Position numbers and translations under genes: made by a program
Notes under the pieces: model-generated
Seen by the model: the letters and a program-made list of their open reading frames with translations, nothing else
Databases searched by the model: none
What the model was told of the DNA's origin: nothing
Source of the DNA: Macrostomum lignano
Lineage: Eukaryota
Direction of reading: 5' to 3'
NCBI GenBank assembly: GCA_002269645.1
Contig: NIVC01001530.1
Coordinates: 209,420 to 273,419, forward strand
DNA length: 64,000 bases
Shown: one piece after another, positions 19,801 through 64,000 of the stretch
How positions within the stretch are numbered: position 1 is the first letter of the stretch
How the letters are laid out: each line of letters begins with the position of its first letter

Positions 19801-19988
19801 ATCTTGTAACCGGTTATTCCCGTCAGCCTACCTTTGCCGCGCGCATGTAACCAACCGCTAATAAGCAAGTGGTTCCATTGGATGCTAAACAGAGTTAGGA
19901 GCAGCAGTGGCAGAAACAGCACCAGATTCCAGGACTTCAGCGCTAGTTGAGTGCGTAAGAGAAACAGGGATTGGCTCACGGTGCCCAT
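13804..19988 (-). CDS. ABCA-family full transporter paralogue 3 with degenerate nucleotide-binding motifs
   Basis: Exon 19988-18551; intron 18550-18273; exon 18272-15093 (ORFs 16627..18318 and 14996..16630, frameshift near 16690); intron 15092-14177; last exon 14176-13804. Same intron positions and phases as paralogue 2. Confidence 0.8.
14395..14590 (-). mobile_element. tRNA-derived SINE-like element in an ABCA intron
   Basis: Minus strand reads AGCCTTGTGGT...GGTCGTGAGTTCGATTCC (A/B-box-like), then GAGGAAGACACTTAAC and a (TTA)n tail. Confidence 0.5.
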
Positions 19989-44800: not shown

Positions 44801-45018
44801 CTCCTCCAGAGGAGGAGTTGGCCTCGTCCTTATACTAAAAGTGGTGCGTTGTTTGTGTGTATGTATGTTGTAAGTGAACTCCTACAATTCTGGCAAGTCA
44901 GCGTCGAAACTTATATGGGAAAACTGCAAATTTTCCGGATCAGGCTTTAGGCTATTTTAATTTTTAATTTTCACATTTTAACATCCCTAAAAAAGCAGAA
45001 AACTGCTTTTTTAACCCC

Positions 45019-45304
45019 AGTAGTATATAAAAAGACGCTTCTAGACCCAGAGCACTTTTTTAATGACCGTTTTAAGGGTCTAGAGGGGGGACACGGGGGG
45101 TAAATAAAAAAACACATCTAAACACCCTTAACACATCTAATCACCCATAATCACCCCTAACAATAAAAATCATTCCCAAAACTTCCAAACACTCCCCAAC
45201 ACTCCCCTCGCGTCCCCCCTCTTAAGACCTTACAAACGGCCATTAAAATAAGGTCTGATCTAGAAGCGTCTTTTTCTATACTACTACTCTATAACCCCTT
45301 GCCC
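45019..45304 (+). repeat. Left terminal inverted repeat (286 bp)
   Basis: Reverse complement of 62444-62729 with about 4 mismatches by eye. Confidence 0.95.
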
Positions 45305-45323
45305 TCTTTTTCTGTTACTAAAA

Positions 45324-45638
45324 ATGACCCGAGTTTACACCTTTTCTGTTAGTGATACTTTTGAGACTGTTGCTAAAAATGCAGAGATAATAAAACAACA
45401 TATTTTGAATGGAATAATTGATGAAGTTTATTTAAAATATGACGACAAGCACGACCTAAAACTTTATCCATTAGAGCTAGATGAGATGTATGATTTAGAA
45501 CAAGAGGGTGAGTTAATATTTCAACTTGGAGATTATTTAAATTCGGATGATTGGGAGGTTAGATCAACAGATTCCGAATCAACAAATAGTTCATATGAAA
45601 CCAGCGATTCAGAGAATGAAAGTGAAATTTTTATTTGA
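45324..45638 (+). CDS. Polinton hypothetical protein with acidic C-terminus
   Basis: 104-aa ORF with the AAAAATG start context shared by other element genes. Confidence 0.6.
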   Translation: MTRVYTFSVSDTFETVAKNAEIIKQHILNGIIDEVYLKYDDKHDLKLYPLELDEMYDLEQEGELIFQLGDYLNSDDWEVRSTDSESTNSSYETSDSENESEIFI

Positions 45639-45654
45639 AAAAAATATTTAAAAA

Positions 45655-45879
45655 ATGAATTATTATTCTATAACAGAAACGACTTTTATTATGAAAAATA
45701 TATATAAAAAAATGAAGGTAAACTATTCCTATATCGGAAATGTTCCAATTAATGAACTTAATGAAAATTTAAGTCTAATCACTGTTGAACAAATGTCAAT
45801 AATAATATTAGTAACAATTATTGTAATAATATTGTTTTTGTTTGTTATAAAAAATTTACTACCATGTTGTCTTAAGTAA
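45655..45879 (+). CDS. Small membrane protein (one TM helix)
   Basis: 74 aa; hydrophobic IIILVTIIVIILFLFVI; AAAAATG start. Confidence 0.55.
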   Translation: MNYYSITETTFIMKNIYKKMKVNYSYIGNVPINELNENLSLITVEQMSIIILVTIIVIILFLFVIKNLLPCCLK

Positions 45880-45889
45880 CTGATCGAAC

Positions 45890-46794
45890 TTAGTTTGCAG
45901 ATAATATCTGATTCTCATAAAACGAACCCAATATTTCTTCACCGTCCTTATCAGCAATTATATAGGTTGTAGGATTGGTATTTAAAACTTTACTGATAGT
46001 AAATTTCTCACTTATCTTCCAATATCCTTTTCTTCCTTTTTCAAACTTATCTTTCCATTTATAGATATAAACAGAATCACCAACCTTAAAAGATTTCTTT
46101 TTATTTTTTTCAAATTTTCCAAAAGTAACCCTAACATTTTCAGGATTGTTATAAGCTTGTTGAGGAGTCATCTTTATAGCTGAATGATATGAATTGTTAT
46201 AATCTTTCACTACGTCTGGTAATATTTTTACCCATTTTTGGTTACCATTAAGACTAAACTGAAACCATAATTTCTTACCTAAAGTTCTATTAAATCTTTC
46301 TATTAATGCGTTTTTACTCTCTCCATAAATAGAATAAATTTTATTAATATACTCCCCATTCGCGTCTTTTTTCCTTTCTTGTCCTTTTTCAAAATGATAT
46401 AATTTATACATATGAGGATTGTAAAATTCTTTTCCTTCGTCAACACACAAACGTTCGCTTTTTTCTCCAAGACTTCTAAAAGCAGCAGCAACATCCTCTC
46501 CTTTTTTGGATTTCAAAGGAACAGCCCACGCGTATCGAGTAAAACCATCTAATATGGTTAAGATATATTTATATCCTCTTTCGTTCGGCATCGACATTAA
46601 ATCAGCATACCAAATTTCATTCTTTTTGAAGTTCATGATTTTTCTATAAAATTTAGGTTTTCGATATTCTTTATGAAGAACCTTAGCCTTATCATAACTT
46701 AGCCCACTACCACTTAATAACAAACATTCGACACAATTATTACCATGTTGGTTGTAATTAATTCCTAAACCAAATTTAACTTTAGATTGTAGAA
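45890..46794 (-). CDS. Retroviral-like (rve) DDE integrase, probably the C-terminal part of a PLA2-integrase fusion
   Basis: WYADLM, ILTILDGFTRYAWAVPLKSK, CVDEGKEF, LIERFNRTL (D-D-E); SH3-like tail FKVGDSV. Frame is open up to the A-run at 46795-46800 with no ATG before the N-terminal LHKEYRKPK motif. Confidence 0.95.
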
Positions 46795-47495
46795 TTTTTT
46801 AACCATCCACCTAGTTAATCTTTGCCCTACCGATAATCCCTGCAAGTTATCTAATCCTTGAATCATTTTTTGATCGGCTTCATGTTTTAATCTTAATGCT
46901 TCCTCGGGCGGGTTCTTGTCAGCATCTCTATATGCTAAGTCGTGATAGTATGCTAACCAATCAATCCCATTTATTGGAATTGAATCAGATTTTGGGGTGT
47001 CATCAGGATTTAATCTCAAATCTAAGCGAGTCCCCGGCAGTTTACCCTCAATCTTTCGAAAGAGGCTGGAGCACACCTTAAGCGGTTAAATTACCGCCCA
47101 TCTCCGTCTGCTCTCTGAACCTTCTCCTTATATTTAAAATACTTAGGAGCTTGGCTGCGCATTGCCACCGTGTCTTCAAGCTTGTTACCATCGAACCATA
47201 GGTTCGCGTGCAAAGCACGATTGGGAAGAGGAGTTACCTCTGTTCCTTCAAAAGATTTCTCAATTGAAGTGGTACTTGAAGCTGTATGATGGGTTTCACG
47301 CAATTTGGAGATGTCGCCACAAATAGTGACTAGCAAGGACATTGCCTTCCTCACTCAGGCCGCGGGTTAACCTGTGAAGTTCATTGATGGTAGGTGTAGT
47401 TCCCCTGTATATTTACCAGTAGTAAAGATTGGTGGTAAGCTCGTTAATCCTTTTTGTAAGTCTAAAAATCCTCCTTCAAACACTATTTGGTTCAT
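46765..47495 (-). CDS. Parvovirus-type phospholipase A2 domain protein, 2 exons (47495-47370 and 47037-46765 or beyond)
   Basis: Spliced translation MNQIVFEGGF...ELHLPSMNFTG|PGTRLDLRL...IDWLAYYHDLAY...KHEADQKM restores the GPG Ca-loop and HD catalytic dyad. Confidence 0.88.
47038..47369 (-). ncRNA. Group I self-splicing intron (IC1-like), 332 nt, no intron-encoded ORF
   Basis: Exon ends in U (CAGGU) pairing with IGS GCCUG; intron ends in G. P AAAUUGCGUGAAA, Q AAUGCGCAGC, R GUUCAGAGAGCA, S AAGGUGUGCUCC. P3 CAUCUCC/GGAGAUG; P7 GAGCA/UGCUC; P5a CUUCAAG/CUUGAAG with A-rich bulge; P6a CUCCU/AGGAG; P8 GCGGU/ACCGC. Confidence 0.9.
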
Positions 47496-48044
47496 TTTTA
47501 ATAGCCTTAAAAATACATGAAAGCACCAATTGTTTCGCAAATTCTTCAATTGTTGGTTGTTTAACTTTTTTATAGTTATTATCTACGCTAGTTAAGTATC
47601 TTTTATTTCTCCAATTTTCAGACTTTTTAATCTGATCATCGTCTTTGTAACTAAATGAAGAAGCGGGATGAAATGATCAATATCTAACTTTCCAGTATAA
47701 TCTTTTGATACATAATAATTTCTTGTGAAATTTAACCAATCAAAAAAGAATTCTTTTGTGCAACCAAGATATGAGATATAGTCCTTGTCATTAAAATTTT
47801 TCAACGCCCAATTTATTCTATTTCTAATTAAAACAATATGTTTGTAATTATCATCAGTGTGATACTTATTTTTTCTATATTCATTCCATTTATCTTTATT
47901 GTTTTTTATCCAAATAGCAGATGAGGTATTATGACAAGATCGACAATCATTTCTAAATTTTTTTGAATCATTTCTCCAAAAATAAAATTCTTTCGTCATC
48001 GGTTTTTCTTGTTTACACTTAGTACAAATCTTATTAGTTTCCAT
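47476..48044 (-). CDS. HNH-family endonuclease with N-terminal zinc finger (1-nt frameshift near 47660)
   Basis: CTKC...CRSC; YLGCTKEFF..W; LDIDHFIPL. Adding one T extends the frame to SSFSYKDDDQIKKSENWRNKRYLTSVDNNYKK..., completing an HNH/HNN-like fold, with the stop at 47476. Confidence 0.7.
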
Positions 48045-48071
48045 TTTATAAAAAATAAATTTAACAATTAA

Positions 48072-48737
48072 TTAAACACCAGTATGTCCAGCAGCTTTCG
48101 CAGCAGCTAAAACAAGTTTTCGTGGTGTTTTAAATCCATCACCAACAGCTGGTTTGTTATTTATAGAATTAACAATCCTTTTATACAAGCTGGTATTTTT
48201 AACAGCTCCTCCTAACTCATCATAAAAAATTCTAGCACTTATTAATTCATCCCTAGTATATAAATCAGGGTTAAACTTTACCCTAGGGTTCATAACAATA
48301 TTATATGCTCCACCCAATTCTCTATATAGTTCATTTCGATTTTTATCAACTCCACCAATTCGATAATTATTATTACCTAAATCTGTCGCAGCAATACTAG
48401 CTGGTACTCTTGGATATTGTTCCCGATCGCCCCGCTCTGCACGTCTAATCTCTGCAATTCTCAATTGTGCTTGATCAACATCATAAGCAGGCGGCTCATC
48501 CAAAATTTCATCCTCTTTTGGCTCAGTATTTTTAGCAATTTTTTCCAGAAGATCTTTATCTGTTTTTTCTAGTTCACTAATTTTCCCAGTAATAGGATTA
48601 ACAAAAGGAGCAGCAAATCTTTCACCCGCTAATTGTATTCCTAACTTTCTTTTTTGTAAATTTCTAACAAAATCAGAATATCTTTGCTTCTCTTTATAAA
48701 TCGCTAACTCTCCATCAACGTCCATAAATTGACTCAT
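48072..48737 (-). CDS. Polinton hypothetical, probably a virion core protein
   Basis: 221 aa; AAAAATG start; PITGKISEL segment; VGDGF protease-site-like motif. Confidence 0.6.
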   Translation of the reverse strand: MSQFMDVDGELAIYKEKQRYSDFVRNLQKRKLGIQLAGERFAAPFVNPITGKISELEKTDKDLLEKIAKNTEPKEDEILDEPPAYDVDQAQLRIAEIRRAERGDREQYPRVPASIAATDLGNNNYRIGGVDKNRNELYRELGGAYNIVMNPRVKFNPDLYTRDELISARIFYDELGGAVKNTSLYKRIVNSINNKPAVGDGFKTPRKLVLAAAKAAGHTGV

Positions 48738-48771
48738 TTTTTAACATAAAAAACTTTTTTAACTTAAAAAA

Positions 48772-50244
48772 ATGGCTGAAACAAAAACTATGTGGAGTGA
48801 TAAATTTCATTTCAAAAAGCACCGACAGTATATTAATGAGGTCAGAGCAAGAGATTTAAATTATACCCTACCAACAAGTGATAATTCAAATAACTTTACT
48901 ACTGGAACGGTAACTTTTGACATCGGCGCAACCAACACTATATTGGATATGAAAAATGCGTTTTTCCGCGTTAGATGGTTGTATACTAGAAATGATGGAA
49001 CTGCTCTTGCAGCCGGAGATATCGCAGATCGATCCAGAATAATAATAGAAAATGATTGGTTTTATAAATGTTTTTCCCAAGCTCAACTAACTGTTAATGG
49101 TGCTGAGGTTGAGACATCATCAAACCCCGCAGAGATTAATGGAGTTTTGAAACATTTAAATTATACTTATTTATCAAAACAAGTTGGTGATAATGTTGGG
49201 TGGATGCCGGATAAAGGTAACGGGCAAGCAGTAGTTTTCCCTAATGTACAAAACGCAGCCGGTGCAGATACTGCAGCGCTAATTGTTTACCTTAATACAA
49301 ACATAGTTCCAGTTGTAACCACTATGACTAATACAAAAGATATTAATACTGGTTTTATAGATCGTCAGAATAAATTCCCAGTCGCGGTTTTAACCACAGC
49401 AACAGCATATGAGCAGGACTTTTCAATCTTTCCACTATTTGGGTTTTTCTCACCAAATCGGGTATGGAAAGGATTAAAATTTGGGATACAGTTGCAAATA
49501 TCTGGTGGATATCAGCCTAGGATACTTTATGGAACCTCAATTTCAACCGATATAGCAGTTCGTATAGATTCAATTCAATTAGTCGTACCAACTATTGAGG
49601 TAACAGCCCCACTTTTAAAACACATCGATAATCAGTTAACGCATGATCAGGAAATATTTTATTTGAATCGTCGACATTTTATGCGAACCATTAATAATAA
49701 CCAGGATTCATTCCAGTGGCAAATACTGACATCAAAACGTCGGGTGAGATATATTTTTGTTTGGTTTAAGATAACAAATAGAAGGAGTAAAAGAGCAAAT
49801 GGGGATTTATATTGGCTTCAATCCGGTGCCATAGCAGAACAAGCAGCCACCGCAACAGACAATGCGGCTGCAGCTATTAACGAGTTTAATGTTCAGAATA
49901 TCCGCCTGCAGGTTGATGATCAATATTATCCGGTTAAAGACCCCCTAAATTTAAATATAGCAAATAATAATGTTAATGATTTTATAAAATATTATCAAGA
50001 TTATGCTAAAAATGAAGCGTATGCCGTCCCTCAGTACACACCCACAGAGTTTCTAAACATTCATCCAGTGGTTGTTTATGATCTAACGGCACAGAAAGAA
50101 AACGTAGCCAATATTGGACTTAATTATATGTTAGAGATTAATAAAACCGGTAATCAGGCACTTGACGCCCACGTATTGTTTCTAGAGGAATATATGTCAA
50201 TTGCTAAAGCTGATGGCACGATTGTTCGGGACGCACCATTGTAA
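48772..50244 (+). CDS. MCP: Major capsid protein (double jelly-roll)
   Basis: Intact 490-aa beta-rich ORF; FYKCFSQAQLTVNG..VE motif; IRLQVDDQYYP; lies beside ATPase, penton and protease genes. Confidence 0.85.
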   Translation: MAETKTMWSDKFHFKKHRQYINEVRARDLNYTLPTSDNSNNFTTGTVTFDIGATNTILDMKNAFFRVRWLYTRNDGTALAAGDIADRSRIIIENDWFYKCFSQAQLTVNGAEVETSSNPAEINGVLKHLNYTYLSKQVGDNVGWMPDKGNGQAVVFPNVQNAAGADTAALIVYLNTNIVPVVTTMTNTKDINTGFIDRQNKFPVAVLTTATAYEQDFSIFPLFGFFSPNRVWKGLKFGIQLQISGGYQPRILYGTSISTDIAVRIDSIQLVVPTIEVTAPLLKHIDNQLTHDQEIFYLNRRHFMRTINNNQDSFQWQILTSKRRVRYIFVWFKITNRRSKRANGDLYWLQSGAIAEQAATATDNAAAAINEFNVQNIRLQVDDQYYPVKDPLNLNIANNNVNDFIKYYQDYAKNEAYAVPQYTPTEFLNIHPVVVYDLTAQKENVANIGLNYMLEINKTGNQALDAHVLFLEEYMSIAKADGTIVRDAPL

Positions 50245-50328
50245 AATGAGTGCAGTGCAAAGCACGTCGCACCACTTTAGTGTCGCAGGTCTCCGACCGT
50301 CGCGCCTATTTAAATTATTTCTTTAAAA

Positions 50329-51142
50329 ATGGTAAAGGCAAAACACAATAAAATATTTCCAAATGATCCTTTTCTTTGTTTAGTAATCGGAGGATCAGGT
50401 AAAGGAAAAACACACTTTGTTTACGATTTATTAACAACAGATGGAATGTTAGACTATAATAATTTAATAATTTATACTAATAAACCTAGAATAAAATATT
50501 ATGAATTTCTTAAACATGGATTAAAAAACAAATTAAAAAAAGATGTCTTGTTTAGAATGTTAAGAGCATATGAGCAATATGAGGATGATGACGAACCGCG
50601 ATTTAATCTAGCAGACATTGAGGATTTATGTAAAACAATGGCACAACAGCCAGAAAACATCACCGATCGCCCCGAAGGGTCGCGGACTTCGTCCGATCGC
50701 GCCCCAACTGTTAGAGTATCAACCCGATTAGCCTATGATCAAATTCCAAAAATGATAAAACACTAATTATTTTGATGATTGTATTAATGACGGTGATCAA
50801 GAATTGCAAAAGGAAATTTTTGTTAGTGGTAGAGGAGATGGAATTGGAGCTTTTTATCTTACTCAATCCTTTAGAGAATTAGAATCGATTATAAAAAAGA
50901 ATGCTAGCTGTTGTGTAATGTTTGATTTAGATAACTATGATCTACAAAATATTCACGCTAGATTTAATCCCGGATTGGATGCAAAACCATTTAAAAGTAT
51001 GTGTAAAAAAATTTGGGATGATAGCCAATACAAACATATTTATATCAATCCGAGGTTAGAAAGGAAACATAGAATTTTAACAAATTTGATAAAAGAAGAT
51101 AATGAGGAAGAGAGACATAGCACGCGGACTTCGTCCGATTAA
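50329..51142 (+). CDS. A32/FtsK-like DNA packaging ATPase (frameshifted near 50750-50775)
   Basis: Walker A IGGSGKGKT; Walker B LIIFDD recoverable after two homopolymer corrections; SGRG and YLTQS motifs. Confidence 0.88.
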
Positions 51143-51157
51143 TTTCCCACTATAAAA

Positions 51158-51941
51158 ATGACTACAAATTTAAATACTATAAAACAATTGGTAGATCGAA
51201 CTAATTCAAAATTTAGTACAACATTACAGTTTATAATGACAACCAGCGAGCAACGGATTCAATTGCGCGATCCATTACAACTTGATCAAAGCCTAAGTTA
51301 TCAAATAGGTTTAATTCTATTTTCGGTTTTCAACATGCCTCAATTAATTAATGCAACAAATAATCAATTTAGATATTCTAAAGATTCCGGAGCCAATTGG
51401 ACAACATTTAGCGTTAACCCAGGAGCGTATAGCTATACTGATTTGAATGCTTATATAGAAGGAGAATTAACAACTAATGGTGATTGGGTAGCAGGAGCAA
51501 TTGTTATAGGTGTTGATTTACCGTCTGGCAGATTCACACTATCACTAGGATCCGGATATCAGGTTGATTTCACAATTGCAAATTCACTCAGAACCATACT
51601 TGGATTTAATTCCCGAATAGTTACCACATCAAGCACCGGTGATACAGTGGAAATATTGAGGGTGGAGTAATACAATTAATATAACAACCGACATATCAAA
51701 CGGCGGTTATATAACAGATAATAATGGAGTTTTGGTTCAACGTGGAATTATTTATTCAATCCCATTTCTTGCTGTTCCAATTGGAGAGAAAATGATTGTT
51801 GCACCTCAAACCCCAATATATTACCCATTAAATCAATATAATGTTCAATCAATTTATATTAGGATTGTAGATGAAAGCGATAGATTAATAAGTTTTGGTG
51901 GGCAGTCAATAACAATAATTTTACGTATAAAACAGGTTTGA
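51158..51941 (+). CDS. Minor capsid protein (penton), frameshift near 51655
   Basis: ORFs 51158..51670 and 51732..51941; C-terminal IYIRIVDESDRLISFGGQSITIILRIKQ resembles Polinton pentons. Confidence 0.75.
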
Positions 51942-52164
51942 TCGAACCTTTGGTTCGCGGACTTTGTCCGTTTCCTATAGTAAAAATGGGTAATAATAAT
52001 AATTTACTAAAAAAACAATCAGAAAAAGTTAAAAAAAGCTGAAGATAATTACGAACTAGAACTAGCAAAATTAAGGCAGTTACAAGCTGATAAAATAAGA
52101 AAGGAATTGTTAAAACCCACACCTACGAAACTAACTAAAACCAAGAGTTTTTCAGGAACATAAA

Positions 52165-52630
52165 ATGACCATGACGTGGGATGATTTTAAACAAAGATAT
52201 GGAACGGACACAACAAGCAATATCGAATTAACAAATTGGGCGAGGCAGTTAAAAATAAAACCATTCAGATGTGTTATGCGAGATGAGATCAAAGACTTAC
52301 CAAATATGGATCTTTCATTGTTAATATTGAAACAACAAAAGAAAATGGTGTTCATTGGTCGGCAGTTTATTCAAACCTAAACTTGTTTATTTTTTTGATT
52401 CATACGCGCTTCCTCCGTTACAGGAAATAAAAGACAAATTTAATCATACTAAAAATCGTTTATGTGGAGATCATCACGAACAATTTCAAACCTTTGATAA
52501 AAGTTATTGCGGGCAAGCGGCGTTGTATTTTTTATATAAAATTAATAACTCGAAGGAAACCCCCGAAGTATTTAAGAATATCATGCAAAGCATGCGACCC
52601 TACGGGGCGATTTTAGACTCTATAAAATAG
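52165..52630 (+). CDS. Adenain-like cysteine protease (frameshifted)
   Basis: GVHW (alternate frame near 52350), YFFDSYA, FQTFDKSYCG: His-Asp-Gln-Cys catalytic order. Confidence 0.85.
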
Positions 52631-52640
52631 ACAGTAAAAA

Positions 52641-54620
52641 ATGTTATTTTCTGGAACACCCTCATGGAACGGAACAACAAGTAGTGGTGGTGGTGGCACA
52701 TCTGGTGGAATAAGTGTTACATTTGGAGATAATCGATATATTAATGAGGGATGAAGGTTATAAAAAAAGTGAAGTTGATACTAAACTAAATTTAAAAAGA
52801 AATGTTGCAGATTCCTATACTAAAACTCAAATCGATGATTCACTAAATCTGAAACGGAACGTAGCCGATTCCTATACCAAAACCGAAGTTGATAATTCAT
52901 TAAATTTAAAACGCAATACAGCCGATTCTTATACCAAAACCGAAGTTGATAATTCATTAAATTTGAAACGGAACGTAGCCGATTCTTATACCAAAACCGA
53001 AGTTGATAATGGATTAAATTTAAAAAGAGATGTAACTGATTCTTATTCTCGAACTGATTCTGATTCACGTTATGTTCAAACCACCGCAACCGGAAACCTA
53101 GATATGAGCAACAACCGAATTATAAATGTTTCAATTACAACTAGTGATTCAGTGGTTGATAAGAACTATGTCGATAATCAAGTTGCCACTCGTAGTGGTA
53201 ATATTAATATGAATAATTTTAAATTAACAAATTTATTATTTGGAACAGAGAACGCAGACTCGATAACTCTAGGCCAAGTAAACGAGCGAGCTAATGCAAC
53301 CGACGCCGATATTTTTACCACGCCGCTTACATCAAATACTTCAAATCCTGATGTTGTTCTTACAGCATCTGAAAATGGCAACACAGCTTTTCGAGTTGGA
53401 GATGGAAGCCTTGCGACACAATGGTCACCAAATACCGGAACCACAACCAATATGGAAATTCAATTTGAATTTTTAGGTTATAATAGAAGAATATTTGAAT
53501 TAAGAATTACAGGCAGTGAAACAATTGAGATACCCTCGGGGTGGTCGGTTCGCGCAAAAAATGTTGCTACCGATTCATGGACGACATTAACTACGTCGGG
53601 ATCACCAGTTCAAGCAACATCATTTGCTCTATCTAATTTAACGACTAATTTTTGGAAATATTATAGCGTATTCTTCCCAACTGGTGGTACCGGTACACAA
53701 CCTATCGAGGTTCGTCAAATACAATTATTTGAACACCGTGTTGAAATTCAAGATCTTAATTGGCCAACTCAAATACTTTCTGCAGTTCCGCGAGCGTACG
53801 TAGATCAGCTAGCTACTCCAACATCAAATGGTAGAATGTCTGGAAGCGATAAAAATAAATTGGATGGAATACCTGCTATTGATGCGGCCTTGTTCGAACC
53901 AGTAATTTGCAATTGGTCTGGATATCAAAATCCAACAACCGCCGGAGATATATATCCAGTCGGTTCTTTAATTGGTGACGCTTCTTATATCGATTATCAA
54001 AACGGCGCTAGAATTACTCGTGAAACTCTGGAGTAAGTGGTGCTTTACAATTCAATTTCACACATTTTCAAAATATATCTGCGTCTTTCTTTTTCCGAGT
54101 TGCTAATTCTACAGGAGATGGTGCAGATGCGGTTTGGTTTTATGCATACTGTCACCAACGTCCAACATCGGAATTTGGAACTGGATTATCAACCGACGCC
54201 GGATGATAGTTTTGCTAGTGAGTGGATGATAGGTTTGGAGTTGTTTGGAGTAATAAAAAATCAGACGGATCAAGCCGCGATGTTAATACTGCGCGATCAA
54301 ACTGTAGCCTATGCTAATATTGATAACGGCATTGGCATTTATTTGAAGTTAATATTTTAAATCAAAGGGTTTGGTACCGATTACAGTCATACAATGTTGC
54401 TGGTGATTCTTTTACCCTCATTGGACAGAACGTTTTCACATATGATAGTGGAACTTGGGGAACTTTAGATAAATCTGGAACCCTTATGGGTTTTGGTGCT
54501 CGAACTGGTGGAGCGGATGCTGCACATTTTATTCGTGGTGCAGTTGTATGTGGTAGTACGTCGTTTGGTTATGTTTTTCCCTCTACTGCTTATTTGGAAA
54601 AACCTCCTACTCAAATATAA
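52641..54620 (+). CDS. Fibre/spike-like protein: repeat shaft, discoidin-like domain, L-type lectin-like domain (several frameshifts)
   Basis: About 5 copies of KRNVADSYTKTEVDNSLNL; AFRVGDGSLATQW...IQFEF; across frameshifts GDGADAVWF and GFGARTGGA..AHFI, ending at TAA 54620. Confidence 0.65.
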
Positions 54621-54651
54621 AATATTTATATATAAAATATTTCTATATAAA

Positions 54652-54951
54652 ATGGCTTTTAGTAGAACTCCATCGATGCGGCAAAATAATGTTATTATTC
54701 CTATTCCTAAACAAGAATCAAATATAAAAACATTCAAATCTCATACCAAATTTTTATTTAGTACTGTAAATGTTCAGGATAATAAGAAGCTTCAAGAATT
54801 AATTAAGTTATTAAAAAATCATATTATACTTCAAGAGTTTTGGAAAATAGGATTTAAATGGGAGAAAAAAGAAAGAATAACTCCAATACAATACCTATTG
54901 AGCTCGGGACAAATCCCAAAGAGCGCGGGGAATTCATTTTGGTGCTATTAA
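54652..54951 (+). CDS. Hypothetical protein (99 aa from ATG 54652)
   Basis: TAAAATG start context inside ORF 54493..54951. Confidence 0.5.
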   Translation: MAFSRTPSMRQNNVIIPIPKQESNIKTFKSHTKFLFSTVNVQDNKKLQELIKLLKNHIILQEFWKIGFKWEKKERITPIQYLLSSGQIPKSAGNSFWCY

Positions 54952-54963
54952 AAATAGACGAGA

Positions 54964-55602
54964 ATGTCGGTATCTGAAGCAGATAAATGGGAACGCGACC
55001 GGTTCAACCAACGTAAAGGTCAGATGTTAAGTAATGTTGATCGTATTAACTATGATTATGATTTATATGCTAAAAAAGTAAGAAGAGTTTCAAACCATAT
55101 AAGAAATATGGACTTTTTCAATATTGGATTTGGAAGCTTATCAATGTTATGTGTAATCGTTTTAGGTATTTTACAATCTATTCCAACTCTTAATTTATCT
55201 CAATTATTTTTAGGTATTTCAATTGGCTCAATATCAGGTTTTGAATTGATCAGGAACTTATCAATACTTTTAGCAATTAAATTATATCTTAAAAAAAGAA
55301 AGGAAAAATATAAATCTTTAAGAGATGTTGCAAAACAATATAAAAATCAATTATATTTATATGTGCAAAAAATATTGGATGACGGAGAGATAACGATTCA
55401 TGAATTATCAACCGCGGTTGAATTATATGAAAAATATTTAAAAGATAGAAATAGAATTTTAGATGTTGAAACTTTTACCGATATGGAATTAAAAGAGTTG
55501 AGACTCGATAAACCCAAAGCTCCACCGATAGAAACATTAGGCATTTACGAACCTGAAACTATTGCTACTGGGGCACAAAGCCCGCGGTCAGGAAGTGCGT
55601 AG
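54964..55602 (+). CDS. Two-TM membrane protein with helical C-terminal domain
   Basis: 212 aa; two adjacent hydrophobic helices followed by a Lys-rich helix and KILDDGEIT. Confidence 0.65.
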   Translation: MSVSEADKWERDRFNQRKGQMLSNVDRINYDYDLYAKKVRRVSNHIRNMDFFNIGFGSLSMLCVIVLGILQSIPTLNLSQLFLGISIGSISGFELIRNLSILLAIKLYLKKRKEKYKSLRDVAKQYKNQLYLYVQKILDDGEITIHELSTAVELYEKYLKDRNRILDVETFTDMELKELRLDKPKAPPIETLGIYEPETIATGAQSPRSGSA

Positions 55603-55636
55603 AACTTCAGGTTGTTTAGTTTTTCTAATGCATATG

Positions 55637-56098
55637 TTATATATTCTTCCCAAAGTGGTAACTCTCTTCTGATCTAGGTTTAAATTTTTTATCAATACAT
55701 AAAAATTCCAATGACTTTTTCAATAACATTTCGTTAGGTATGTTACCTATCCTTATAAACTTTGTATTCTCTCGAATAAGAAAATTGAAATAATATCCAA
55801 CTAAAATTAAAATCCTTTCAGAGTCTTTCGAACTTAATCCCTTTCCTTTATTTAAATGGAAAAAGTTATTATATAAATAAACATTATTTCCGGGAATTAA
55901 AATTGGATCAGAAATGTCTCTTGTAAGATTTCTTAAAATTGTGTTTTTAAAATAGTAATATGAGTTTTCAATCTTTTTTGTTTTTTCAAATTGATATATT
56001 TTAGAACATGAATAACACATATGATATATATCTCCGTTTGCTGTTTGCCCTCTGTGCATAGTCACATTACATTTATTACAAACATAAATGTCTTTCAT
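55637..56098 (-). CDS. Zinc-ribbon hypothetical protein
   Basis: CNKC...CYSC; AAAAATG start. Confidence 0.55.
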   Translation of the reverse strand: MKDIYVCNKCNVTMHRGQTANGDIYHMCYSCSKIYQFEKTKKIENSYYYFKNTILRNLTRDISDPILIPGNNVYLYNNFFHLNKGKGLSSKDSERILILVGYYFNFLIRENTKFIRIGNIPNEMLLKKSLEFLCIDKKFKPRSEESYHFGKNI

Positions 56099-56124
56099 TT
56101 TTTTGTTATTTTTTTAGATTAAAA

Positions 56125-56457
56125 ATGGAGAGCTGGTTCAAAACCGATTCTAATGTGATTAATTATCTCACACCCAATATGTTGGAGAATAAAGAATATA
56201 ATATTATATGTTTGAGACAGGTTAAATTTATTGGGCTTCAATCAATATTTTTACAATTAGATGGGCAAAAAATTTTATGTCTAAGCGGAGATGATGTTAA
56301 AAATTTTCCTGTTTTAGTTATTAATAAACCTAAAGCGTTTGTTATGAAATACTGCAACGAGGGTGGATTGCAATTTAAACTAAAACAAACAAATAATAAA
56401 AAGAGTGATAGGACTGTAAAATTGGCGGCTGTTTGGGAGGATGACGACGAAGACTAA
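56125..56457 (+). CDS. Small protein, possible OB-fold ssDNA-binding protein
   Basis: 110 aa, beta-strand pattern, acidic tail WEDDDED, near pPolB. The fold assignment is inference. Confidence 0.45.
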   Translation: MESWFKTDSNVINYLTPNMLENKEYNIICLRQVKFIGLQSIFLQLDGQKILCLSGDDVKNFPVLVINKPKAFVMKYCNEGGLQFKLKQTNNKKSDRTVKLAAVWEDDDED

Positions 56458-56472
56458 ATTTTTTATAAGAAA

Positions 56473-56832
56473 ATGGATACGATAAAAATCCTTATCACTA
56501 AAGAGCGTGAACTTAATGATATTAATAAAAAAATAAATATAATTATATCTCAGAAATATCATGAGTATGGGGACGATATGTTTCCCATCCGATATGAGAT
56601 AGATAAAAGAAAACGTTTTTTAAGACAAGATATTGTTTATGCTGAAATAGTAATTGAAATTGAAATAGATAGATTGGTTAGAAAAATAAAAAAACTTAGG
56701 AAAAAAATAAAGGATTGTTTAAGTTACCCTGCCGACTGTGAGGATAATTGGTGCTCAATAATATATGAAATTGAAGTTAATGATTTGCTCAAACAATTAC
56801 ATGCTTTAGTTTTTTACAGACCCGATAAGTAA
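56473..56832 (+). CDS. Hypothetical coiled-coil protein
   Basis: 119-aa ORF, AAAATG start, convergent with pPolB. Confidence 0.5.
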   Translation: MDTIKILITKERELNDINKKINIIISQKYHEYGDDMFPIRYEIDKRKRFLRQDIVYAEIVIEIEIDRLVRKIKKLRKKIKDCLSYPADCEDNWCSIIYEIEVNDLLKQLHALVFYRPDK

Positions 56833-59800
56833 TTTTTCTGTTAATCTCTTCCAGTTATTCAAGACTTTTTCCTTATTTAATTTTTTAAGTTCTTTTGGAA
56901 ATGTTGAATAATAATTATCTATATCTTTTTCATATTCTAGAAATGTATTATATTCACAATCACATTCGGATTCACAATCACAATCGTAATAATAATTATT
57001 TATTGCCGCTTTGTATTCATTATATTTACTTATTATATCTTCTTTTTGTTTTTTATCTTTTATCATATTTTTTATCTCTTCTTTTAAACCATATGGATAT
57101 GTTTTAATTTTATCATCTAAATATCTTTTATCATCAAATGGACTTAATGTTTTTTTATCTGTCTCGATGACAAACATCTGATGCTTATCTGAATTTAATC
57201 GATATTGTGGAGCATGATAATTTTCAATTGTATTAAGGTAATCTAAAAGTACGTTTTTATAATCATCAAATGTTATCTTTTTTACTGCTGCTCTTGATAC
57301 CCCTTTTATTTTTTTTACCTCTCCCTCCTGTCCTAAAACCTTAAATGCATAGCATTTTGATCTTATTGCTATAAACTCGGTTATGATTTTGCTATTTAAT
57401 TCATCTTTCATTTTAAGTACAACTTTTTTATTTTGATCTGATTTTAAAGGATGGTTATCCGGATAGTCGGAGGTATCCAATGTATCCTTAATTTTTTCCA
57501 TATCTTTATAGACATCGAACCTTTGGTTCGCGGACTCCGTCCGGTCATCTGTTTCAACCTTAAATACCAAACTGTCGGTGTCTGCATATATTGGATAGTT
57601 ATCTGGCCATGTTTTATTTATAACATCATAATAGTATTCATACATTACTAGCTTTGCAAATCTAAAACAACCATTCCAATAAATATTGGTTTAAGAAATT
57701 TTGTTGTTTTATTTCTCATATGAATACCCATAAAGTTATCATCAAATTTTATAAAGTCTTTAAAGTTAGGTTTTGAGAAATATTTCTTTGCTTTATCAAT
57801 ATCCTTTTCTAAATGGAATTGGGTTCTATCTCTAATATTTTCAACCGTTTTTCCATAAAAAGCATTATTCATTAATTTCCAATAATCTTTCTCAAAATTT
57901 GTTTTTGACATCTGTCTCTGATTTGAATTAAAGTCAATATATTTAGCTAACCAATCTTCCTCAATAAACGATATTGTTCGATGTACTTTAGACACTTTTA
58001 ATCCCTGCTTTTCATAAAATTGTAGAAGCTTATAATGCACTACATAGTTTTTCTTATCATGTAAATTTAATATTAATTTTTTTGTTGCTAGATGTTTTGC
58101 ATTATCTACTTTAAGATAATCTTTTTGTGTTTGTGATAAATCATCTTCATTAACTGAACAATGCTCTGGAGCTAAAGGATATTTATATGTTTTTGCTTTT
58201 GCTTCCCGAGTATATTGCAAATCCACTTCTACGATACAGCCCCTTCCTTCGGGAATATTTTTGTAATAATCGGGGTCATCTTCCCATTGGAAATCAGCTA
58301 TTGGTAATTTTTGTTTCATACAACCACCGTATAAATTGTTTGCATCTAGATATAATACATATGATGATTTTTCTTTTTTATTATAATTTGGTAGATATTT
58401 ATTATTTACTTTAGTATATCTATCTCCTAGTACACCCGAGAATCCACCGCGAATTCCTCTCTCAATCATTAACAACATATCATGATCAGTTAGTAAATCA
58501 ATCTTAACATCTGTATGTTTCAAACCACAAGCCCATGTTAATCCCGGTGCACTGAAACAATATGCGGGATCAATTTTAAAATTCTCATATGTATGATTCC
58601 TAAAGTTTTCAAATGCATCAGCTAATAGGAGAACATCTGCTTTAAGATATAGATTATGATAATCTTTAAATGTTTTACAATTAAAGTATTTCCATACTTT
58701 TTGAGCGTGTTCATAATCCGATTCACTTATGTTTGTTTGTGATAATGTTGAATAAAACTTTTCAATTGGGGGTAATTCGGTATGAAAAAATACGTCTTCA
58801 GATGTTACATATTCATATGGATAGATGCCCTTACGAGTTAATAGCATTAGTTCTTCCTCGGATAGTTTTTCTTTTTGAAACGATTCAATAGTATTGGAAA
58901 GTTTTTCTTTACTATTTCTAAATCCCATGGTTTTGGAACTAATGATGAAACAACATTTGCTAAAGATGTTGATAAGAATCTCAAGGAATCTAGAAAAACT
59001 AGATGGGAGTATTTCTTACCATATGTTATTGATATGTAATTTTCTGATGTTTTAGGTAATATATTTATTTCATATTCATCCTTTCCTAAATGAAGCAATT
59101 CTCGAACTAAGAAATGAAAATCATATCCGGAACCATTATGAAAAAATACTGGTATTTCCTTACATCCTTTTCCTTCTTTTGCATTACATGATCTACATGC
59201 TGCCCCTCGATAATTTCCTGTTAGATGACAATGTTCTCGTATCTTATTATTCTTACTTAAATGTCTTTTGCACATAAAACAATTTGTTGCATTTTTATAA
59301 TTGTCTCTATCCTTATTTGTCATATTAATATTTTTTGATAATTTATCATATTGATTTTGAATATATTCAAATACATTTACTAATGATTCTGCCATGTGCT
59401 TAGCTGCATCATTACCGTGGTAAGTAATCATCCTTGATTTAAATATATGATCAGCTACAGAGTGTACATATATACAATAACTATTCGGAAACTGTTGTGC
59501 CAATTTTTTTGTGCATTCACCGTCATCAGATACCGTCTGTGATTCTTTTAAGGGAACATTTGTTGCTTCAAAATCAGCATATATTACTATTGGTTTTTTA
59601 ACTGCCATATAATGTTGTTGGAACTTTAGGGTTGCATCTTCAGATGCTGGCATTATAGCATTAGTAAATTTGTGATCTAAACAAAATCGTTGGTGGTTTT
59701 TAAGAGCTGTTTCATCCTTTTTAAATGTAAAACAATTTCTACATAGTGGATATCTATTTCTATTTTCTCTTAAAAAAGAACTAATATCTTTTATGTATAT

Positions 59801-60767
59801 ATAATGTGTTTCATTTTCGCGCTGCATGTACAAAAGATCGATTTGATCTGGTGCTGTTATATCAGTTGCTGGCTTAACAAGATAACACCTTTTCTTATAC
59901 CATTCTGGATCGGTTAAAATTTCTTCTAGATCTTTTGGTTCTTCAATTGTAAACACATTAATATTTAAACCATTCATTTTTTCAATCTTATATATATCAT
60001 CTATTGCTACTGGGTATGATATGTTTTTCATTATTATTTCATCCTCATATTGTCTATAATTATATATTTTATTAATGTGTGATTCTACTTGATTGTGATA
60101 TTTATGAATTAATAAACACCATAATAAACATTTATTATCTTTATTGTCTGGATTTATAATCATAGGTGATTTAAATTTGAGCTTCATATGTGATCGTCCT
60201 TTAAGAATTTCTATGGTGCAATCTTTACTATTGCTGAATTACAGGATACAAATATAAACCCAGATCCGTTTTCTGTCATCTTATCTATCCATTCATCAAA
60301 CTCAGCTTCTATTTGATCGAATTGATTGTTGTAATTTCCCATTGATAATAATGTTTTATATGATTCTTGTGAAAAGTTATTTATTACTTCAATTTCTGAA
60401 TTTGCATTAAGAATATTTGGTTTTTTAAATTCTGTTTCAACTTCTATTTTATACTTAATTGGCTGTCGTTTGTTATTTGGCCTTATAGTATAATTGTTTA
60501 ATATGTCTTTAATTTATCTTTCATTTGTTTAAAATATTCTTTATAATTTGTATTTATATCTATATCTATATATATTACTTCAGCTCCATTTTGTCCTTGT
60601 GGTTGGGGGTTATTAATATCATTTAATTGTCTTTCTAAACGTATCTCATTTTCTGCCCTAATTCTTGCTTCTATTTCAGCCCTATCGGCAATTCGTTGTG
60701 CATCGATTTGAGCTATTAATTGCGCTCTAAGTTCAGGGTTGTCGATTTGAGCTAAAATTGCTTCCAT
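56806..60767 (-). CDS. pPolB: Protein-primed family B DNA polymerase with endonuclease VII-like insertion (split by several 1-nt indels)
   Basis: IYADFE; FFHNGSGYDFH; FLDSLRF; RKGIYPYEY; YLDANNLYG; KLMNNAFYGK; YADTDS; KCYA..K.KGV; CFMC...REHCHLTGNYRGAACRSCN. Confidence 0.95.
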
Positions 60768-60850
60768 TTTATAGAATAAAATTTATATAATGTTTGAATT
60801 ATTGATTTTTTAATTTTGTGTTTTTGGTGTCCAGACCCTCCCCCAGGAGC

Positions 60851-61834
60851 CTATTCGAGATCTGCTTTTGGTAATAGCAATCCATTGCCCATAACGTTTG
60901 AATTTAAGAAAATTCCTGAACCTGCTTTTGGTCGCATTTCGAGATATAATCCGCTTCCGTCGTGTTTTTCAATGATATTAAAATCTTTTCCTAATTTATT
61001 AAAAATTTCTGAACAGCTGGTCTAAAATTGGATCCAATATTGTCAAAAAATCCTTTAGCTTTCTCACCCGTTTTTTCTAAAGTTTGACCAAATTCATGTA
61101 GTTTATCTGCGACAACTCCACTTCCTTGGGTTGTTCCTTTTAGTACCAAACCATTCCGTGATTTGTTCCTTGCAAGAGTAAACCTTTTCCGGCTGCTAAC
61201 CTAGCTTCTGCATTTCTTTTTTGCTCTGCTGTTGCTGAACTACTATTAATGGTATCAATAAGTTTCTGTTTGAATTGTGCGTCCTGCGTTATTTGCTGTC
61301 TTTGAAATTCGGCCTCTCTTTTAGCTTTTTCGTCCGCAGCTTTTTTGTCATTTACTGCTTTTGCAATTCCAGCTGCTCCGCCAGCAACTCCTCCAGCTGC
61401 TCCAATTCCTGCAAAAATTATTGGGAGCAAAGCTGCAAGGGGCAAGATTCCCCCTGTTTCGCTCTTAACTCTCCTAGCTGTTTTACATTATCATGAATTC
61501 TTTTTCCGGCTAAACCGACTGCTCCAGCTGCGCCAAGTCCTAAAAGAAGCGGTAGAATGGGTAGTAATCCGCCGTCCTTTTTAGTGTGAGTCTCCATTAA
61601 AAATTTCACATCGGAGTCTGTCAACCTATAATTTCTGCCGCGATTCTTAAAGGATATTGGCCTTCCTTCTTGTGCATATTTTGCTGCGAGTTTAAATGTA
61701 TCGATGTCGTAGTCAAACTTTTTACCTAATCGATCCAATCTTTTTAACATTGTGTGGCTATGTTTATTATCATCTAGATCTAAAGTATCTACAATTTCTC
61801 CTATAAAATATAAGCGGTCGTTATCTGTGTCCAT
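60851..61834 (-). CDS. Probable core/cement polyprotein with many GxG/GG protease sites (2 frameshifts)
   Basis: ORFs 61418..61834 and 61140..61445 plus a downstream frame join after +1 corrections; DGGLL, TGGIL, GKGL, GNGL, GSGV, GSGL, GSGI, GNGL. Confidence 0.6.
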
Positions 61835-61844
61835 TTTTATATTG

Positions 61845-62241
61845 TTAAAATTTCTTTAATCCTTTTCCACCTTTAATAGTATTTAACATTTTATTAAAAT
61901 CCTGAATATCTTTATTACTTATTGGTGCGCTTTTCGTGGGGGTTTCTGTTGGTTGTGCGGCTTGTGCCAGCTTTAAATCTTTTATTGCATTTATTTGTGA
62001 GAGGGTGTCGTTAAAATCTCTCAATTTCTTTAGTTCTTCTGCCGCTCTAGCTGCTTCAATTCCTCCTTTTACAGCATTTGTTATAGAGCCTGCTGCAGAG
62101 CCAGCTTGCCCTATAAGCCCCATATTGTCTTTAACAAAATTTGCTGCTGTTCCAACCACATCAAAAGCCCCTCACCTCGGTATTCAACTGGGTCTCCTAC
62201 CTGCATTCATTCAGATTTTGCATATGTGTAACGTGTGTCAT
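61845..62241 (-). CDS. Probable virion core protein
   Basis: ORF 61845..62159 extends upstream through RGEGLFD after correction to AAAAAATG at 62241; C-terminal KGGKGL. Confidence 0.55.
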
Positions 62242-62443
62242 TTTTTGTTCTATTTTTAGTAACAGAAAAAGATTGTCTGCATTCCATTTAGACCAGATTT
62301 TAGACCAAATTTTTGAAAACGAAAACCAAAACGATAGTCTAGTTTTGTTTGGTCTAAAATCTGGTCTAAATGGAATGTTGGGTGGGTAGGTGAGCTGACT
62401 ATAAATAGCTTCTATTCTTTCCGACCCTTCGCGCCTGCGGCGC

Positions 62444-62729
62444 GGGCAAGGGGTTATAGAGTAGTAGTATAGAAAAAGACGCTTCTAGATCAGACCTTAT
62501 TTTAATGACCGTTTTTATGGTCTTAAGAGGGGGGACGCGAGGGGAGTGTTGGGGAGTGTTTGGAAGTGTTGGGAATGATTTTTATTGTTAGGGGTGATTA
62601 TGGGTGATTAGATGTGTTAAGGGTGTTTAGATGTGTTTTTTTATTTACCCCCCGTGTCCCCCCTCTAGACCCTTAAAACGGTCATTAAAAAAGTGCTCTG
62701 GGTCTAGAAGCGTCTTTTTATATACTACT
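62444..62729 (-). repeat. Right terminal inverted repeat (286 bp)
   Basis: Ends TATATACTACT; matches the left TIR. Confidence 0.95.
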
Positions 62730-64000
62730 AACCCCCAATAACCTTCTTTGGCTACTCTGCCTGGGGCTGAAGCCAGTTTGTAAAAATAGCCACCCCAACC
62801 TCCGCCCGCGGGCCGGTGTGTATTGAGGGGTGGTGGGTGCGCGTGTTCTGGGTTCAATGCAAATAAAACCCCCCGCGTGTTGGGGGGTTCAGTTAAATTT
62901 AATGCTTCCCCCAGAACGGGGGGTTGGGCTTGGGCTGTTTGTACATAGCAGTTGTACAGTGTAAACAGATAGATAGGACTGTGTCGAGATTCATTTGGTT
63001 TTATTATTGGCGCCTTTTTTCTCCATAGGCAGCCCTGTGTATTAGTTTGGCAGTGAAATTCAATGAATTGCGAGCTTCTCTAGCAAGCAGTCGGGAAATC
63101 GGTAAATTTCAAACGCTAACTGTTCCTCGAGTTTTAAACTTTGAGAGGAGAGACTTATATTGCTGGAAAGATCTTGCAACGCTGAGTTCGGGAATATAAG
63201 TTGTATGCTTTAAATATGAAAAGAAAAAGCACAGCATTTAAAAAAACTATTTCCATACTTTTAACTTTCTGCAAAAACTGTAATCAGTTTTGCGAGACGT
63301 AATAGATAAAGTTGGGCGTATTGGAAGGGGTCTGCCGCTGCGTATTGGAGGGTTGATTTAGATTGCGCAACCGTTTATTTAACTTTAAATAAGACTGATA
63401 CTGTCTGACTGAGAAATGGTTTGCGCAATTAATTGATTCAATTAATTCAACACGCAGCTCTGTGCAGCTCTAACCCTAACCCTAACCAATGAATTCTGAA
63501 AGTTAAGTTCTTTTTGACAGAGAAAATTTCGATTGAGTCGCAGTTTTCACGGAGTATTCTGATGGTTTTCGGTTTCACGGAGAGGATTTCTTTTCGTGGA
63601 GAGAATCTAGATGTATTTCTGTTTTACGGAGACGATTTTGATGGATGTCAGTTTCACATCAGAGGATTTCCATGGAGCCCAGTTTCACGGAGGGGATTTC
63701 TGTTTCGCGGATTGGATTTCAAAAGGAGTCCAGTTTCACGGAGAGGGTTTCTGTTTCGCGGAGAGGATTTCTGTTTCGCGGAGAGGATTTCGTTTCGCAG
63801 AAGGATTTCTGTTTCACGGAGGGATTTTGATGGATTTGGTATCTTCAGTCAGTCAGTAAAGAGAGTAAAGAGAAGAGTGAAAAGAGAAGAGAGAAGAGAT
63901 GAGAGAGGACAGATTAGACATGACATGATGGGAGAGAAGAGGGGAGTAACGCGGGAACGAAGAGGGAGAGAGAAGAAAAGAGAGAGAGAGGAGATGAGAG

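Follow-up and report, generated by a model that had tools for sequence, protein, structure and literature searches.

Introduction

Group I introns of about 300-380 nt that match Rfam family RF00028 have been described in endogenous Polinton-like elements of Rhodomonas, Paulinella and Desmodesmus (PMC12220804). There they are reported as confined to a few protist groups, in a short gene that precedes the capsid gene, and with no annotated nuclease. Here, we report on a 64,000-nt stretch of the Macrostomum lignano genome (assembly GCA_002269645.1, contig NIVC01001530.1, positions 209,420 to 273,419, forward strand), in its full length called the window below, which contains a Polinton with a group I intron in its PLA2-integrase gene. 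As group I introns in protist Polinton-like viruses have already been published, the novelty lies in the animal host and in additional features, namely an intron-encoded restriction-type nuclease, a void of the motif GGNCC, alleles with a terminal A (omega-A) and another type of intron that occupies the identical position.

The IC1 introns (Tetrahymena type, including chlorovirus and giant-virus introns) share P2.1, P5abc with an A-rich bulge and a GAAA loop, and a receptor in P6a/b with the intron described here, which differs from them in the absence of P9.1 and P9.2, in its altered P7 sequence and in its location in a protein gene of a nuclear-integrated animal element. Animal group I introns are on record from the mitochondria of sponges, placozoans and cnidarians (PMC9240083), whereas the present intron is nuclear, high-copy and carried by a virus-like element. 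Nuclear group I introns have been placed in the ribosomal DNA (rDNA) of microbial eukaryotes, on the basis of GenBank-annotated boundaries only (PMC11835236).

PD-(D/E)XK homing enzymes (I-Ssp6803I and the EDxHD enzyme I-Bth0305I) likewise combine a restriction-enzyme fold with a group I intron. They have long sites, regarded as the hallmark of homing enzymes (PMC3943268), whereas the nuclease found here is of the Eco47II family and genome composition points to a 5-bp site. The Eco47II family is listed among type II restriction enzymes and is assigned no part in homing (PMC3424549). Eco47II, EcoO109I, AvaII and chlorovirus restriction-modification resemble the present case in family or fold, in targets with a GGNCC core and in the presence of a short-site cutter in a eukaryotic virus. 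These enzymes are paired with methyltransferases, in contrast to the present case, where protection appears to come from site loss and an intron, with no methylase among the scanned open reading frames (ORFs).

In collaborative homing, an intron that lacks an ORF has a free-standing nuclease as its neighbour (Bonocora and Shub 2009; Zeng 2009; both as cited in PMC11296320). The same arrangement, with the nuclease directly upstream of exon 1, is present in 12 of 42 short-intron loci here; unlike in the described cases, both states occur in one genome, and the nuclease tree suggests exit from the intron, the reverse of the proposed route. A natural omega-A intron is Cbu.L1917 in the 23S gene of Coxiella burnetii; by comparison, the present family is multi-copy, lies in a protein gene and has omega-A as its most frequent allele, next to omega-G sisters that can be compared with it. 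In the open-access literature, which lacks most subscription papers, we found no group I intron in an animal Polinton, no Eco47II-family homing enzyme and no site avoidance completed by an intron. A nematode Polinton preprint, PMC11296320 and bioRxiv 2026.10.13.758929 bring up introns solely where nucleases are discussed.

A group I intron at the Gly-Pro junction of the PLA2 calcium-binding loop

The insert (332 nt, minus strand; Table 1) sits in phase 0 between a Gly and a Pro codon. Exon 1 ends F-T-G, with U as the last base before the 5' splice site, the intron ends in G, and exon 2 opens P-G-T. A full-model match to RF00028 at 47047-47358 scored 58.7 bits against a gathering score of 50 (E-value 2.4e-14 when 601 nt were searched and 7.2e-13 for 17.8 kb). 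The Rfam gathering scan of the whole window with fast filters returned no matches, and the intron was recovered only under laxer filters. The minimum free energy z-score of the intron strand was -3.34, with none of 100 shuffles as good.

Helices P1, P3 (7 bp), P4, P5, P5a-c, P6, P6a, P7, P8, P9 and P9.0 can be drawn in the window copy. P1 consists of 5 bp with a terminal U-G at the 5' splice site and is invariant in all 31 aligned alleles. P5a carries an A-rich bulge, P5b is capped by a GAAA loop, P7 reads GAGCA/UGCUC with the G-C pair of the guanosine site kept, and the terminal omega-G (47038) follows P9.0.

For covariation, 69 base pairs drawn from the window copy were mapped onto 31 alleles (21 short, 9 long and 1 metagenomic), picked from 68 genome loci with both ends called. 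Pairing held in 2117 of 2139 cells, a percentage (99.0%) that is inflated because the structure was drawn from one of the aligned sequences, which leaves the count of double changes unaffected. Such double changes were found in 20 of the 69 pairs (10 without the metagenomic allele), compared with 2-4 pairs, at 39-51% pairing, in six controls with slid partners. Compensatory changes between lineages of the same genome affect P2, P3, P4, P5a, P5b, P5c and P7. P7 exists in three sequence states, all fully paired, and the guanosine-site G-C pair is intact in 66/68 loci and broken in two degenerate long copies. Alternative P2 sequences preserve the stem in 5 of the 21 aligned short alleles. That the group I intron is real is, in our assessment, practically certain. 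Its periphery varies: two optional P5abc hairpins (30 nt) are missing in alleles of 301-303 nt, and hairpins of 15-45 nt were gained or lost at several peripheral sites (P5, P6b, P2.1) among the long alleles L036-L047.

The hallmarks of IC1 introns are P2.1, P5abc with an A-rich bulge and a GAAA loop, a receptor in P6a/b, and the P9.1 and P9.2 extensions. P2.1 and P5abc with bulge and loop are present here. P9.1 and P9.2 are absent, with only 8 nt from P9 to the 3' splice site, and the intron therefore has an IC1-like core without being a clean IC1 intron.

An initial annotation, made from the letters of the window alone, had proposed that an animal genome contains an integrated Polinton with a group I intron in one of its protein genes, and this is supported. 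It had correctly placed the 332-nt insert and its ends, and had anticipated the guide-exon P1 with terminal U-G, the 7-bp P3 and the variant P7 that we find to covary across alleles, and the remaining helices (P2, P2.1, P5abc with bulge and GAAA loop, P6, P8, P9 and P9.0), all of which were found. The covariance-model search that it recommended gave RF00028 above the cut-off. Other claims needed amendment. Without the insert the frame is intact across the junction, yet a separate frameshift interrupts this copy near 46,790; the host gene does have a PLA2 part, but it is a PLA2-integrase fusion and not a stand-alone PLA2; and the IC1 label suits the core but not strict membership.

Intron-bearing and intron-less alleles

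An intron DNA search of the genome yielded 203 candidates, 40 of them scored, at 88-100%. A search with the 3'-end pattern gave 119 matches (control 0). The genome holds more than 100 intron copies. Five allele states (A to E) were distinguished at the Gly-Pro site, and the survey of intron-plus and intron-minus alleles suggested in the initial annotation thus found both.

Long introns (state A; 836-895 nt, 72-91 bits with RF00028) contain an ORF of 228 aa that starts in the P2.1 loop, itself closed by a 9-bp stem, and runs on into the core. Short introns (301-333 nt) come with one of two genes in the slot directly upstream of exon 1, and never with both (42 short loci). In 12/42 loci it is a free-standing nuclease ORF, 67% identical to the intron-encoded one (state B), and in 30/42, window included, an HNH-like ORF (state C). 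In one locus (L066), the HNH-like frame continues into exon 1.

At 22 places (for example L297, G000:C904:36100-36800), a second group I intron type occupies the same Gly codon (state D). It has P2, P2.1 and much of P5abc as in the short family, a different core and a compensated P1, and it scores 42.9 bits with RF00028 (E-value 6.5e-9), below the cut-off. Its 3' end is identical in 21/22 places, and its exon 2 does not start Pro-Gly. From its sequence, this type looks like a recombinant of two intron lineages. Intron-less alleles (state E) gave 25 matches (control 1). The Gly codon at the insertion site ends in C in all 25 intron-less alleles found, and in T in all intron-bearing loci read.

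The system exists in other samples, as judged from a metagenomic contig and from environmental homologues. The contig (L095, 1297 nt) is in state A, with the same site, the nuclease, the gene fusion and a canonical P7 (80.6 bits), and eleven environmental nuclease homologues in the tree described below have tails reading into an intron core. The nucleases of 79/80 metagenomic and 10/10 viral loci are distant (27-39%), with no intron match. Viral-contig introns with the shared core motif have best matches of 61-77% over parts, and the search for close Polinton relatives among viral contigs found none with polymerase B or integrase, only one weak non-Polinton match and one distant control. In several viral contigs (L219, L233/L234, L214), a span of 3 kb holds two or three group I introns that are related to each other.

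A nuclease of the Eco47II family

The intron-encoded ORF matches PF09553 (RE_Eco47II) with 30.1 bits against a cut-off of 25.9 (E-value 4.6e-7); the free-standing (4e-4) and L095 (2e-3) copies are below the cut-off. Of the PD-(D/E)XK residues, E-L-K are invariant and D is near-invariant, and the ratio of nonsynonymous to synonymous substitution rates (dN/dS) was 0.11-0.23 in three pairs. The structural model has a predicted local distance difference test (pLDDT) score of 77.5, with a conserved domain of about 160 aa and no extra DNA-binding module. The C-terminal tail is a read-through of the intron core (pLDDT <50).

EcoO109I was the top VIA match (Z 9.9, root-mean-square deviation (rmsd) 3.9, 168 aligned) and the sole row with Z of at least 8, and AvaII (Z 6.1, rmsd 5.0, 137 aligned) appeared amid unrelated helical rows. 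Foldseek ranked a DdmD chain first (template modelling (TM) score 0.32), followed by EcoO109I and AvaII, with E-values of 1.4e-4 and 7.2e-4. No solved sequence homologue of the nuclease was found, and BFVD contained a single nuclease match (E-value 4e-4) with poor superposition. EcoO109I cleaves RG^GNCCY and AvaII cleaves G^GWCC (PMC7337904), and an Eco47II homologue has been predicted as a GGNCC cutter 'without certainty' (PMC10305163). By analogy with these enzymes, the nuclease probably cuts GGNCC.

In a tree of 50 nuclease proteins rooted at the midpoint, the free-standing clade is nested among intron-encoded and intron-tailed rows (support 97/86 for the enclosing 13-row clade, 91/75 for an inner node), which suggests that the nuclease left the intron to become free-standing. 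No methylase family was detected among the scanned ORFs of the window element and of L300, a scan that covered no whole nuclease-bearing element.

The element is void of GGNCC

A Gly-Pro codon pair always contains GGNCC. For this reason the word was chosen for counting, and for the same reason the intron splits the last site. GGNCC does not occur in the element, whereas dinucleotide frequencies predict 20.3 sites, a third-order Markov model predicts 11.8, and shuffles of codon order give 8.5 (0/1000 at zero). It is the most depleted of 256 XXNYY motifs and the only one of the 16 interrupted palindromes at zero. Gly-Pro dipeptides are likewise missing (0 in 4001 residues versus 5.8 expected). 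The nearest sites, 43183 and 62810, are both outside the element, and host DNA at 1-24 kb of the window contains 33 versus about 39 expected. GGCC is also under-represented in the element.

The void is not peculiar to one copy. Over 68 non-independent intron loci, 7 sites were counted versus 220 expected, and two distant Polinton families (L025 versus window; capsid 24%, integrase 62% identical) share both the intron site and the void. Intron-less relatives from the two families retain GGNCC at the insertion site. In L298 (1.25 kb) it is the only GGNCC; in L299+L300 (6.1 kb), it is the only one in genes, with one more upstream of the genes. A distant Polinton-like contig with neither an intron nor a nuclease match has 10 sites versus 17 expected, an uninterrupted Gly-Pro included.

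Proposed homing into the last GGNCC

Taken as a whole, the model that we favor, with somewhat better than even confidence, is that a mobile intron hides the last GGNCC, the nuclease cuts that word, and repair spreads the intron. The window intron would be the nuclease-less form of this mobile intron. The intron would leave the transcript by two transesterifications, perhaps protein-assisted, to give the PLA2-integrase fusion. The nuclease would cleave the five-base GGNCC like its relatives, and self-cleavage would select against every other GGNCC in the 18-kb genome. At the conserved calcium loop, where Gly-Pro makes the word unavoidable, the site could be hidden in DNA only by an intron, with RNA splicing restoring the coding sequence. 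An intron-less relative would then be cut at about one place, and repair from an intron-bearing copy would spread the intron. Homing specificity would stem from the small purged genome, with no need of a long recognition site. For its nuclease, the window allele would depend on other copies or on the upstream slot.

If the nuclease cuts GGNCC, homing specificity and self-immunity would need neither a long site nor methylation. A frequent cutter would become a single-site homing enzyme, possibly a weapon against host or rival viral DNA, and a motif void together with an intron in Gly-Pro would be a simple signature for finding further cases. A new homing and immunity logic for a selfish intron, with a putative activity, is probable. 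We more tentatively suggest, at slightly short of even confidence, that the Polinton as a whole is a methylation-free restriction system, composed of a GGNCC cutter, a purged genome, a last target behind a ribozyme that would be spliced out of an animal mRNA, mostly with omega-A, and possibly a weapon.

Several observations weigh against this model. With the protein sequence held fixed, only 3.4 GGNCC sites are expected, and 2.5% of shuffles have none. The reversed word CCNGG is also low (7 versus 20.3), and the satellite flank is partly GGNCC-low. The distant Polinton-like contig is the sole outside Polinton control, and 48 distant viral or metagenomic nuclease loci of at least 5 kb have no specific void (309 versus 450; 80 control loci are similar with 240 versus 356). 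The nuclease is only 12-15% identical to the solved enzymes. In the 25 intron-less alleles found, the wobble base is C and not T, and these alleles have not disappeared from the genome; the C may confer partial resistance, or T alleles may have been lost by conversion. Finally, a five-base cutter would damage host chromosomes, a toxicity that known homing nucleases avoid by long sites (PMC3943268). By analogy with the chlorovirus enzymes mentioned below, one might guess that the host tolerates the nuclease through its confinement to productive replication.

An unlikely alternative puts the weapon first. The nuclease would be a frequent cutter directed against host chromatin, a helper giant virus or competitors, purge and intron would provide self-immunity without methylation, and homing would be incidental. 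This alternative shares splicing, GGNCC cutting and the purge with the favored model and differs in what selection maintains. It fits the view that chlorovirus restriction enzymes degrade host chromatin (PMC7019647), purifying selection on the free-standing nuclease in 12/42 short-intron loci, the absence of GGNCC from both families despite capsids that are only 24% identical, and the lack of a methylase family among the element ORFs scanned. Against it, the tree has the nuclease originate within the intron, at the very word that it would target (13-row clade, 97/86). Moreover, the HNH-like gene holds the slot at 30/42 short loci, and the free-standing nuclease is therefore dispensable.

It is improbable, in our view, that this is an ordinary homing intron with a long-site nuclease, the void having arisen from an outside nuclease, methylation-driven mutation or amino-acid composition. 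There is a precedent in I-Ssp6803I, a PD-(D/E)XK homing enzyme that recognises 17 bp (PMC3424549), and the low CCNGG and GGCC counts and the marginal synonymous-shuffle result would be accommodated. Against it stand the rank of GGNCC (alone at zero among 16 interrupted palindromes, first of 256), the agreement of the void word with an independent prediction based on Pfam family and fold, and a conserved domain of about 160 aa with no added DNA-binding module.

Omega-A alleles and splicing

The 3' ends were tallied on the 100 of 119 matches listed, one of which was unrelated. Among the matches listed, 60/78 short alleles end in A and 18/78 in G, and all 21 long alleles end in G. An assembly error was rejected as the source of the terminal A, which was present in 4/4 independent runs. 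Compensation by an altered guanosine site was also rejected, as 32 short loci with omega-A and 10 with omega-G have one and the same P7. The splice site of omega-A alleles is fixed by P9.0 and the reading frame; a cryptic in-frame 3' site 9 nt upstream, which would break P9, is not favored. Spliceosomal removal was rejected as well, on visual inspection: a GT precedes the 5' splice site by 2 nt, yet none of the AGs within the final 16 in-frame codons of the intron would bring back the frame.

Selection on the coding sequence was assessed from the ratio of nonsynonymous to synonymous polymorphism (pN/pS). It was 0.29 (short family) and 0.21 (long family) for the last 24 codons of exon 1. In exon 2, the first in-frame ATG is codon 58, and an in-frame intron stop lies 16 codons before the junction. 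For codons 1-55, pN/pS was 0.05, and among 11 distinct omega-A alleles the variable codons were 21 with synonymous changes only versus 3 with amino-acid changes. Recombination with intron-less or omega-G alleles could be part of the source of variation in these codons. The exon-2 frame is kept for at least 380 codons in 27/32 omega-A loci. Judging from the sequences, the intron is very likely spliced in the lineage.

Two points count against splicing. An omega-A majority with unchanged P7 should slow the second splicing step, and no exon joint 47037/47370 was found in contigs of X1, X2, X3 (guessed to be RNA) and X18 (kind unknown), the spliced-junction check that the initial annotation had proposed. 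Contigs of the four runs cross both splice sites unspliced, and none of the runs in which the stretch occurs is recorded as RNA. As assemblies drop rare forms and DNA may be present, splicing is neither shown nor excluded by this search, in which the long-family exons were probably too divergent for placement. One joint was seen, 47034-47416 (X18 only), and is not a splice junction. The earlier claim of an active ribozyme is supported only indirectly, by covariation and by purifying selection on splicing-dependent codons, and the host gene of the window copy is frameshifted.

We consider it quite improbable that a relic intron is seen here, one spliced seldom or not at all, with integrase made from an internal start and omega-A alleles as dead passengers. 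Such a relic would be in line with the missing joint, the omega-A majority and the broken window copy, and an internal start with the ATG at codon 58 and with two environmental gene calls (P0036, P0037) that begin inside the 3' end of the intron. It is contradicted by the purifying selection seen in exon 1 and in the first 55 codons of exon 2, also among the 11 omega-A alleles, by the compensatory helix changes between lineages, and by the long exon-2 frames of most omega-A loci.

A high-copy family in an animal nuclear protein gene makes ribozyme function in animal nuclei and mRNA testable. A single genome offers omega-G and omega-A sisters, three P7 variants, and states with the nuclease inside, outside or absent.

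The Polinton and its host

Table 1. Coordinates of the intron, its host gene and the surrounding Polinton (positions in the window)
Feature	Position	Strand	Basis
Whole Polinton, 17,711 bp, without any GGNCC site	45019..62729		Motif count
6-bp target-site duplication (45013-45018) and left terminal inverted repeat	45013..45304	+	Repeat search
Right terminal inverted repeat and 6-bp target-site duplication (62730-62735)	62444..62735	-	Repeat search
Integrase (rve), same gene as PLA2	45890..46636	-	PF00665, E-value 4e-8
Exon 2, PLA2 part (Pro onward, His-Asp motif)	46765..47037	-	ORF reading
Group I intron, short ORF-less allele, omega-G end	47038..47369	-	RF00028, 58.7 bits; pair counts
P7 (47115-47109 with 47073-47068), enclosing P3 3' strand and P8	47068..47115	-	Three paired P7 states
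P5abc extension: A-rich bulge, GAAA-capped P5b, P5c, two optional hairpins	47174..47281	-	Allele alignment
P2 and P2.1; P2.1 loop is the place of the Eco47II-like ORF in long alleles	47316..47355	-	Allele alignment
P1: exon bases 47374-47370 with internal guide 47360-47356	47356..47374	-	Invariant in 31 alleles
Exon 1 of PLA2-integrase gene, 42 codons, last is Gly	47370..47495	-	ORF reading
HNH-like ORF upstream of exon 1, frameshifted near 47,665	47592..48044	-	Nearest Atlas clusters
Major capsid protein and packaging ATPase (N-terminal part)	48772..50766	+	L300 relative; PF04665
Protein-primed DNA polymerase B (presumed), three frames in window copy	56806..60187	-	Polymerase motifs

The terminal inverted repeats of the Polinton are 286 nt long. 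The window copy is degraded, with frameshifts in the PLA2-integrase gene, the upstream ORF and the polymerase. Where the gene is intact, the frame of exon 2 continues for 382-408 codons and extends into the integrase. The PLA2-integrase fusion is also seen in P0004 and P0038, the latter a natural intron-less full-length protein. The HNH-like ORF has no Pfam match, and its nearest family-bearing Atlas clusters are HNH at 0.87-0.89, which serves as a lead only. The capsid protein is 24% identical to a double jelly-roll (DJR)-like protein in L300 (E-value 5e-25), and the packaging ATPase match to PF04665 (E-value 0.006) is below the cut-off. We take the polymerase to be of type B from its motifs, there being no Pfam match to that family. 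Frames of 1250-1330 aa for this protein are open in many other copies at 95-99% identity, and the Polinton family is therefore young. The N-terminal polymerase frame (58847-60187) includes an endonuclease VII-like domain (PF02945, E-value 4.8e-7).

In the 764-Mb host genome, a Wnt search gave 86 matches from 92 candidates (best E-value 1.7e-47). Contigs C952, C506 and C67 carry both Wnt exons and intron copies, and the host is therefore an animal. Searches for mir-124 and for Chitin_bind_4, both run without a positive control, gave no match and no candidates, respectively. The host small-subunit ribosomal RNA (SSU rRNA) gene, the part of the rDNA considered as an intron source, has no insertion. 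A Polinton from a contaminating protist, fungus or alga, as one might suspect from the typical occurrence of IC1-like introns in these groups and in giant viruses and from the core motif in at least 122 viral contigs, can be dismissed as exceedingly improbable, given the target-site duplication and terminal repeats that tie the Polinton to the contig, the contigs shared with Wnt exons, 13 scored SSU rRNA matches of 1812-1813 nt with near-equal scores, and the presence of the stretch in 20/24 listed runs from 7 studies with a single organism label.

Elsewhere in the window, host DNA at 11-9487 and 14996-19988 contains an intron-poor cluster of ABCA-type transporters. Just inside the right terminal repeat, at 62280-62377, two perfectly matching inverted arms of 30 bp are separated by 38 nt, and microRNA matches at this place were far below the cut-off. 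A large 23-bp satellite, seen as about 300 matches that overlap, flanks the Polinton at about 31200-44600 and again past 63600.

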